From a virus: DNA of 64,000 nucleotides. Positions 52,316 through 53,715 of this stretch are shown here, one piece after another (within the stretch, counting starts at the first letter, position 1; the number at the start of each line of letters is the position of its first letter). Location of the stretch: positions 93,789 to 157,788 of the IMG/VR virus record IMGVR_UViG_3300022839_000007; one strand, given 5' to 3'. The translations under genes and the position numbers were made by a program. A model generated the notes under the pieces. The model was not told the DNA's origin. It did no database searches and saw only the letters and a program-made list of their open reading frames with translations.

Positions 52316-53326
52316 TTATGCATTATCAACTGCCTTAATCCTTGCTTCTTGCAGCTTACTTTGAATTTTGTTTGCATCAGTTTCTCCATTTGGAAAAACA
52401 TCAATAAACTTAACACTACAGTATGCTTTAAATTTTTGCATCAATACCCAAAGGTGTTCAATACTATTATTTTCGGATCCTAATCTGCCTCTTTCGTCGC
52501 AGATACCAACACTGTATAGAATACTAACTGCTCGAGGATCATTTAACACTTGCATATCGTTAAACATTTTTACATATGTATTAGCTTTGATAGTGTCTAA
52601 CTTATGCATCAGCATATGATATCTAGTAGATTTCATTGAACGATCTCGAATTTTCGAAGGAACAGTTAGTCTGTTAGCAAATGATTCAACTAGTGCAACA
52701 CCATTTACATCGTGTCCGTAATGTTTTGGAAGACGATGAAATGGAGTTAACCCTTTACCAAAGTCATGTACAAGTACAGCAAACATAGCTTCAAGGTCCA
52801 TTTTAAATTCAGCAGCTTGTGTCAGGCAAAGCATTGTATGCTTGTATGCATTTCCTTCTGGGTGCCACCGATGAGATTCCAACGCGGTTAATAACTTATA
52901 GATTTCTGGAAACACCGCATAAAGTGCATCGCATTCCAACAGTGTATCAAAAAACAGCCGCGGAAATGGTTCCAGCAACGCCTGACTCATTTCTTTCCAA
53001 ATTCTTTCAGGAGTTAACTCATCTAGTCCGCCTGACTTTGCTATATTGTAAATCAAAACTTTTGTTTCAGCAGCCACAGTCCATTCAGGACCAAGCCTTG
53101 CACGAAATCTTGCAATCCTTAGTACACGAACTGGATCTTCACTAAATGCATCACTGGTATGACGCAGAATCTTTGCTTGAATATCGGCTCTACCATTATA
53201 AGGATCAATATATTGACGAATACCATCAGGCGAGTTTGGTATATCGCTTTCCATGGCAATGGAGTTTATAGTGAGATCACGACGTGAGGCGTCTGTAACT
53301 AAATCTATAAAATGTGCAAGTTTCAT
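52316..53326 (-). CDS. cca: CCA-adding enzyme, C-terminal part (motif B onward plus HD domain)
   Basis: [46 protein letters not shown]. Confidence 0.9.
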
Positions 53327-53715
53327 GTATTTTCTCTCTTGTTTATATTGCGAAAGAATTCAATAAGTGTTTCGGTGTTATATTCTGTTTTTAAATCAAA
53401 CCCAGCATCGATGAACTTTTGTAATAGTTCAGGGTTTATAGTTTTTACATTCTCACCGTTTTCTAACGTTACATCGATATCAAATTCACTAGTAAAGCCA
53501 TGATATCCAACTCCGGTTTTTTTATCGCGACGAGCTAATGCATACTGGTTGCCAGTTGACGGTTGTAGATATACTGGGAAATCTGCACCAACTTTAGAAA
53601 AGCCATTCGCAATCATTTGTTCGGGAGTAGATCCTACTACAACAAAATCTATATCTTTAGGACTAATACCCATCAACATATCTCTAACTGCGCCACCTAC
53701 TAAGTATACATTCAT
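53323..53715 (-). CDS. cca: CCA-adding enzyme, N-terminal part (catalytic motif A)
   Basis: [10 protein letters not shown]...KDIDFVV...YALAR...GYHGF...DVTLE; AGGAGAG SD. Confidence 0.9.

Follow-up and report, generated by a model that had tools for sequence, protein, structure and literature searches.

A split phage CCA-adding enzyme gene as the probable endonuclease-free remnant of a mobile homing-endonuclease cassette

The DNA analyzed here (the window) is a stretch of 64,000 nucleotides covering positions 93,789 to 157,788 of the IMG/VR virus record IMGVR_UViG_3300022839_000007. On its minus strand, the gene for the CCA-adding enzyme (cca) comprises two ATGA-coupled open reading frames within 52316-53739. 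We consider it probable that this locus is the endonuclease-free remnant, or "scar," left by a mobile cassette with a homing endonuclease, whose target in phage cca genes lies immediately upstream of motif B. The complete cassette would consist of four pieces: a stretch of about 40 codons, which supplies a helical tail and a stop codon to the C-terminus of the upstream half; an oppositely oriented HNH endonuclease gene (about 330 aa), with its 3′ end overlapping the 3′ end of the tail; a short spacer that contains expression signals; and, for the downstream half, a start codon with a leader of ~8 aa. In the phage of the window, the endonuclease gene and the spacer would have been deleted, probably between two ATAAAC repeats, and the deletion would have left the two cca halves translationally coupled by ATGA. 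The two polypeptides would then assemble into one active site, to which part 1 would contribute motif A and the flexible loop, and part 2 motifs B-E, the tRNA-binding body, and the HD domain.

Part 1 (53715..53323, minus strand) encoded 130 aa counted from the ATG at 53715, and part 2 (53326..52316, minus strand) encoded 336 aa. According to the reading of the open reading frames, the stop codon of part 1 overlapped the start codon of part 2 in ATGA (53323..53326, minus strand), which is an arrangement of translational coupling. Both frames were found on the minus strand as the first-pass annotation, made from the letters alone, had described them. An alternative in-frame ATG at 53739 would lengthen part 1 to 138 aa. 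The start was best placed at 53715, because an AAGGAG Shine-Dalgarno sequence (53723..53728, minus strand) precedes it; the database protein of the source record is also the 130-aa form. Residues 1-85 of part 1 (53461..53715) made up the catalytic core, which contained motif A (GGAVRD plus DxD), the basic/acidic motif, and the flexible loop, and which ended at DVTLE. Residues 86-130 (53326..53460) made up an added 45-aa tail with two predicted helices. Part 2 started with a new N-terminal leader, MKLAHFID (53303..53326; family consensus MK[IL]xxF[VI]D). The remainder of part 2 (52316..53302) contained motif B RRD (53276-53284), motif D EDPVRVLR, the neck/body RNA-binding domain, and the HD phosphohydrolase domain (Pfam HD, about 52604-52846), all on the minus strand. 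The break was located in the head domain, between the flexible loop and motif B. The tail and the ~8-aa leader together added about 53 residues, or about 160 nt, in agreement with the earlier estimate of ~165 nt gained.

In class II CCA enzymes, RRD serves ribose discrimination and EDxxR is the nucleotide template. Motif A of this class was present in part 1 (VGGAVRD, DIDF), and motif B (RRDLTIN) and motif D (EDPVRVLR) were present in part 2. The family profiles were divided in the same way. Positions 1-32 of Pfam PolyA_pol matched part 1 and positions 87-126 matched part 2, and positions 3-87 of PHROG 2244 (tRNA nucleotidyltransferase) fell in part 1 and positions 84-385 in part 2. Part 2 was also matched by Pfam PolyA_pol_RNAbd and, at residues 161-241, by Pfam HD (E 2.7e-5), so that the set of motifs expected by the first-pass annotation, including the HD domain, was found intact. 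The sequence search with part 1 against solved structures gave no match at E 1e-5; residues 1-78 of its AlphaFold2 model aligned to the heads of CCA enzymes, e.g., 1MIV residues 20-100 (Z 5.6-6.6). The alignment of part 2 to solved enzymes began at its residue 9, corresponding to residue 97 of the Aquifex aeolicus enzyme (1VFG) and residue 104 of 1MIV, and its profile and structure matches in general started at residue 8-9. The head, which is a single polypeptide in class II CCA enzymes, was carried here by two open reading frames. The DxD and the flexible loop are in part 1, and the RRD, the EDxxR, the tRNA-binding body, and the HD domain are in part 2. This indicated that the active site needs both chains. 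The sequence LVTDASRRD of part 2 was homologous to the canonical L-x-E-D-L-x-RRD, and therefore only MKLAHFID is truly new at its N-terminus. The new leader proposed in the first-pass annotation was retained in this shorter form, and the claim was dropped for the residues that follow it.

Homology of part 1 to canonical cca ended at DVTLE. When part 1 was searched against 5.8 billion proteins, dozens of matches 110-137 aa long were obtained, which covered ~90% of the query including the tail with 44-68% identity. The tail was common to at least 57 metagenomic part-1 proteins and had the consensus LNxxLLQKFxDxGFxxxxDYxxEELIExF. In the alignment of these 57 proteins, residues F101, G105, and L117 were invariant, and L97, L98, K100, and Y112 were nearly so. 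All 18 relatives of part 2 (327-347 aa) started with MK[IL]xxF[VI]DL[VI]TDxxRRD. A tail and a leader shared so widely do not come from a sequencing error, nor from a simple frameshift, which the reading from the letters alone had already discounted. In one relative (L092), a repeated MGMGMGMK extension (3907-3930) preceded the usual leader, and translation of that part 2 probably starts at the downstream ATG.

The best 120 longer proteins found with part 1 were ordinary cca proteins of 372-444 aa that matched the part 1 core only; neither the tail nor a fused insert-bearing form occurred among them. Their scores reached at most 138 bits, vs. 192 bits for the nearest split relative. The best unsplit homologues of part 1 shared 78% identity over ~65% of the query, roughly its first 85 residues, and the closest unsplit phage homologue (P0144) was 71% identical to part 2. 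In related genomes the gene was contiguous: cca was unsplit in the best 80 of 429 relative-encoding IMG/VR loci and in 185 metagenomic proteins. When the tail alignment was compared with 80 unsplit cca proteins, hhalign gave a probability of 0.2%. Together with the limits of the PHROG 2244 and Pfam matches, this value agreed with the earlier description of a part 1 that resembles class II CCA enzymes up to DVTLE and then continues in an unrelated tail. To the eye, the tail resembles LTINSMA..G..DPFNG..L..VLR, and a degenerate duplicate of the motif-B region was considered as its origin; the same profile-profile comparison ruled this out.

Genomic contexts were covered for 13 loci, and 12 related complete loci were counted. 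In nine of the 12, the cca halves were separated by a gene of 327-343 aa on the opposite strand. This full-length endonuclease gene was found in loci L004, L006, L091, L092, L093, L097, L100, L101, and L102, always on the reverse strand relative to cca. Its 3′ end overlapped the final tail codons; the overlap measured 44-80 nt in L100 and L097 and 32-33 nt in the other seven loci. The beginning of the same tail/endonuclease arrangement was seen on two short contigs, L098 and L099. The proteins of L004 and L006 matched PHROG 655 (homing endonuclease) and PHROG 12434 (HNH endonuclease) with E about 5e-11 and contained the HNH motif SSHHILP..WN..H..AH, and nothing above the Pfam cut-off was found in them. 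The seven other intervening proteins were 43-89% identical to that of L004. Locus L103 had only a 49-aa C-terminal remnant in place of the usual endonuclease, and in locus L005 the halves were separated by a 105-nt spacer without an endonuclease. Beside the remnant in L103 (a Logan SRR31824754 contig), there was a different endonuclease-like gene of 293 aa (1487-2634; PHROG 3339/12131, Pfam DUF7487). That suggested a turnover of selfish genes at one site.

The search for homologues split at the same site, which the first-pass annotation had suggested, yielded both forms, i.e., with the endonuclease and without it (L005). The same annotation had treated the split as free of any endonuclease and as a hint of a new route to split genes. 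This part was not upheld, since the relatives carry a free-standing HNH cassette at the exact break. In the window itself, no endonuclease lay between the halves, which overlap in ATGA. Neither the window nor the whole 157.8-kb record contained a match to the endonuclease; the record is a fragment estimated to be 45% complete, and a copy elsewhere in the phage is possible. Directly upstream of part 1, ~500 nt (window 53815-54300) were without open reading frames, and the relatives' endonuclease gave no tblastn match there.

No Rfam intron family was found at E up to 1 in L003 (the locus of the window) or in the two endonuclease-bearing loci L004 and L097, and no intein-like Cys/Ser ... HN+nucleophile was found at the cca break. 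The overlapping genes of the window leave no room for an intervening sequence. The locus was indeed without intein or group I features, as first described. A ribosomal frameshift at ATGA might also join the halves into a single CCA enzyme with a 53-aa insertion in its head domain, and the geometry is compatible with this, as the frame of part 2 is shifted by -1 against that of part 1, with an overlap of only 4 nt. However, there was no slippery heptamer at the junction, and the best 120 longer proteins contained no tail-bearing fused form. In most relatives, moreover, ~1 kb with an opposite-strand gene parts the halves, which makes two proteins the norm of the family. We therefore regard recoding as very improbable.

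The probable deletion junction, ATAAAC followed by AAGAGAGAAAATAC, was placed by sequence comparison at 53327..53346 on the minus strand. In the endonuclease-bearing relatives, the tail end reads ...(C/T)A(A/T)(C/T)(A/G)TATAAACC.ATAA. Their spacer just before part 2 reads ...GATAAACAC(T/G)AA(G/A)GAAAA..ATG, also given as ..GATAAACAC.AAGGAAAATAA ATG. The window reads ...CGCAATATAAAC-AAGAGAGAAAATAC-ATGA at the junction and matched both the relatives' usual tail end and their spacer upstream of part 2. From ATAAAC on, the tail end continues into the Shine-Dalgarno region of part 2; this region serves part 2 in that role and is also read through as the extra residues KRENT before the stop. The endonuclease gene was probably flanked by two ATAAAC repeats, and a deletion between them would account for the junction; this mechanism we infer from the matches on either side.

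The AlphaFold2 model of part 1 placed two helices in the tail, at residues 95-103 and 114-128, with pLDDT 89-92 at residues 101-120. No family for the tail was found in Pfam or the ESM Atlas. Its structural look-alikes were generic two-helix folds (Rho_N-like and HTH-like, TM 0.5-0.6 over about 35 residues), which are to be taken as leads only. Codon comparisons among ten loci gave median dN/dS values of about 0.11 for the core and about 0.25 for residues 91-119 of the tail, a stretch with no overlapping gene; with dS saturated, these values are rough. The conserved tail residues were retained in both endonuclease-free loci, the window and L005. This suggested that the tail is kept for the sake of the enzyme and not for that of the endonuclease.

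These data also bear on the question of whether the fracture inactivated cca, so that the halves are drifting pseudogenes or one piece keeps a function such as that of the HD phosphohydrolase. Neither half contains a complete active site, which would fit a decaying gene. All catalytic motifs are nevertheless intact across the two halves, many diverged phages have kept the two halves and the tail (dN/dS of about 0.1 for the core, 0.25 for the tail), and the tight ATGA coupling was kept after the loss of the endonuclease. Decay is accordingly given very little probability. The best reading of the split cca is a two-subunit enzyme, because its halves and tail are conserved under purifying selection in many phages and are not a frameshift artefact.

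A search of 1.84 billion representative proteins with the tail profile found 13 short proteins, in which the tail was always C-terminal. Pfam PolyA_pol matched nine of ten newly found tail proteins, two of them below the cut-off. The tail was also considered as a general adaptor of other split genes; this was rejected, as the profile search gave only short cca-type N-terminal fragments and one weak match. The weak match was to residues about 560-720 of a 727-aa metagenomic protein (P0337; E 1.6e-4, five stretches). This protein resembles BlaR1/M56-peptidase membrane proteins, and the matched region is formed by its C-terminal tandem repeats VDPDFLKKYMDSGLDLDDHE.YIHSR, which may be the same short helix-loop motif or may match by chance.

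The split alleles were scattered on the cca tree. A FastTree phylogeny was computed for 204 rows (19 split) of the cca core, starting at RRD; on it, the split state needed 18 changes, which was no fewer than with shuffled labels. It needed 13 changes in an IQ-TREE phylogeny of 63 rows (18 split), which left out the long-branch P0124 and two long unsplit rows. In the latter tree, the window paired with the unsplit P0144 with 99% support. The AU test rejected a single clade of split alleles (delta lnL 378, p-AU 3e-53). In addition, the tail-profile search found the tail on head fragments of an HD-less cca subfamily (GLQHGT...DGRHA type), which had its break at the same site, the same reverse-strand endonuclease, and the same leader. 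In comparisons with this subfamily, the cca cores were 24-43% identical and the endonucleases 42-48%. That suggested that the insert entered cca genes that had already diverged. Scattered split alleles and the same cassette in a distant subfamily together indicated that the cassette is mobile. A homing endonuclease would be predicted to cleave endonuclease-free alleles and to be inherited in a super-Mendelian manner; the scatter on the host-gene tree and the high identity of the endonuclease gene between L004 and L091 (below) are a population signature of such homing.

Two split loci, L004 and L091, differed strongly in identity along their length. Their DNA was 89% identical in the endonuclease gene and 87% in the spacer, vs. 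65% in the tail, 78% in the core of part 1, and 67-69% in part 2, and the genes flanking cca were unrelated between them. We read this pattern as the footprint of a recent transfer of the endonuclease between alleles. The endonuclease can thus pass from one allele to another after the split is in place, and it need not have caused the first split itself.

Here, two explanations can account for the history of the site: the first is that the cassette arrived whole and was partly deleted in the window; the other is that some other event made the tail and the leader, and that an HNH gene then colonised the intergenic site. According to the latter, the window would represent the ancestral state that was never invaded, and a parallel is the history suggested for gene 43 in Aeromonas phages 25 and 44RR, where the same ambiguity exists (PMC2988022). 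The L004/L091 pattern is in its favour, as an endonuclease gene and spacer with 87-89% identity beside a tail with 65% would move independently of the tail, and so is the lack of the endonuclease in L005 and the window. However, the 3′ end of the endonuclease overlaps the last tail codons in all nine complete loci, and tail, endonuclease, and leader occur jointly in the distant cca subfamily. Furthermore, at its junction the window looks as if the end of the tail had been fused to the spacer that precedes part 2, and in L103 the endonuclease is decaying in place. A split that preceded the endonuclease is thus unlikely, though it has a better claim than recoding or decay, and we prefer to interpret the locus of the window as the remnant of a cassette.

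If the remnant is functional, the halves would bind each other as a heterodimer and the split enzyme would have CCA-adding activity. In the most likely picture, the sheet of the head domain would be completed across both chains, and the two helices of the tail would strengthen binding or help to position the chains correctly. By analogy with the mobE-split NrdA of phage Aeh1, the conserved tail probably helps the halves to assemble, and the leader perhaps does so as well; the purifying selection on the tail and its retention in the endonuclease-free loci are indirect support. We speculated further that the cassette carries a portable repair kit, i.e., a two-helix tail of ~40 aa and a short leader that reassemble whatever cca it splits; to this we give about even chances. 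If it is true, the element could enter the catalytic head in cca subfamilies that differ widely, and the gene would survive. The tail would be indispensable and would be kept after the loss of the endonuclease, as in the window, and it would be a natural, transferable module for split-protein assembly.

The multifunctional Cca of the E. coli type, which has an HD domain and is found in many large phages, is the unsplit counterpart of the window enzyme. It shares GGxVRD/DxD, RRD, EDxxR, and HD with it, and both would be expected to build or repair the CCA at tRNA 3′ ends. The window enzyme differs in being two polypeptides with about 53 added residues. Some bacteria, e.g., Aquifex aeolicus, have separate CC-adding and A-adding enzymes, which are two complete paralogues with different specificities. 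Such a pair likewise uses two proteins for CCA synthesis, whereas here one active site is shared by two chains. The cca of a cultured phage, Pseudaeromonas phage KLEP7 (OM654377; L001, 63008-64252), is also annotated as two genes. Its break, however, is elsewhere (177 aa + 213 aa with a 70-nt gap), with no endonuclease between the genes and no such tail. The phage collection contained no match of near-identical DNA to the locus of the window.

The closest known system is nrdA-a/mobE/nrdA-b ("genes in pieces") of Aeromonas phage Aeh1, whose activity depends on the insertion-derived tails (Crona et al., 2010, PMC3045599; review, PMC2988022). As in Aeh1, the relatives of the window have a free-standing HNH homing-endonuclease gene inside a functionally critical region of a conserved enzyme gene. 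Introns and inteins are likewise absent, each half is translated on its own, and the break has new C- and N-terminal sequences, which unsplit homologues do not have. In contrast to Aeh1, the host gene here is cca, and the endonuclease gene runs in the opposite direction, with an overlap into the end of the tail. The cca arrangement is widespread and scattered over the tree of the host gene, and Aeh1 is one phage. In the window, the endonuclease was probably deleted, and the halves are ATGA-coupled.

The same kind of split is reviewed for the T4 topoisomerase and for Aeromonas gene 43, including an endonuclease-free form (PMC2988022). T4 gene 39/mobA/gene 60 and gene 43A/43B of Aeromonas phages 25 and 44RR also have separately translated subunits and a site linked to a free-standing endonuclease, and the gene 43 split of phage 44RR, which is without an endonuclease, is a parallel to the window (PMC2988022). 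They likewise concern phage enzymes of replication or nucleotide metabolism, but these splits affect other enzymes and involve other endonuclease families, and no shared tail sequence is known. The fracture of genes by homing endonucleases is therefore already published, and cca is a new enzyme for it. Full-text literature searches did not find a split cca with an endonuclease at this site. The idea that added tails take the place of splicing, which the first-pass annotation had put forward, had already been published for the Aeh1 ribonucleotide reductase.

The split cca would be a second and far more widespread natural example of the Aeh1 NrdA principle, in which a mobile endonuclease breaks up an essential enzyme, and tails borne by the insert, not RNA or protein splicing, restore function. 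The window would represent the end state, where the selfish gene is lost and the host gene is still in two pieces. The many diverged natural variants with and without the endonuclease are suited to testing how the tails work, and one question for such variants is whether the tails could serve as small tags for split-protein assembly. For annotation, short phage "PolyA_pol" open reading frames beside an N-terminally truncated cca would be read as one two-subunit enzyme and not as pseudogenes.

Another gene of the window was also found in pieces, and the first-pass annotation had grouped it with cca as a sign of a recurring, tail-based route to split genes. The gene for the family-B DNA polymerase (polB) occupied at least three open reading frames within 8018-12091 on the minus strand: 10235..12091 (618 aa), 9204..9734 (176 aa), and 8018..9094 (358 aa). 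The 176-aa piece ended with YGDTDS followed by about 115 residues starting with CEANSLIET, and the 358-aa piece started with about 75 residues ending with ILIHN, followed by SVYF. The break at YGDTDS (motif C) looks like a naturally split intein, which would act by splicing. The first break, in the fingers, was a 500-nt gap that held an open reading frame of 63 aa (9984..10175).
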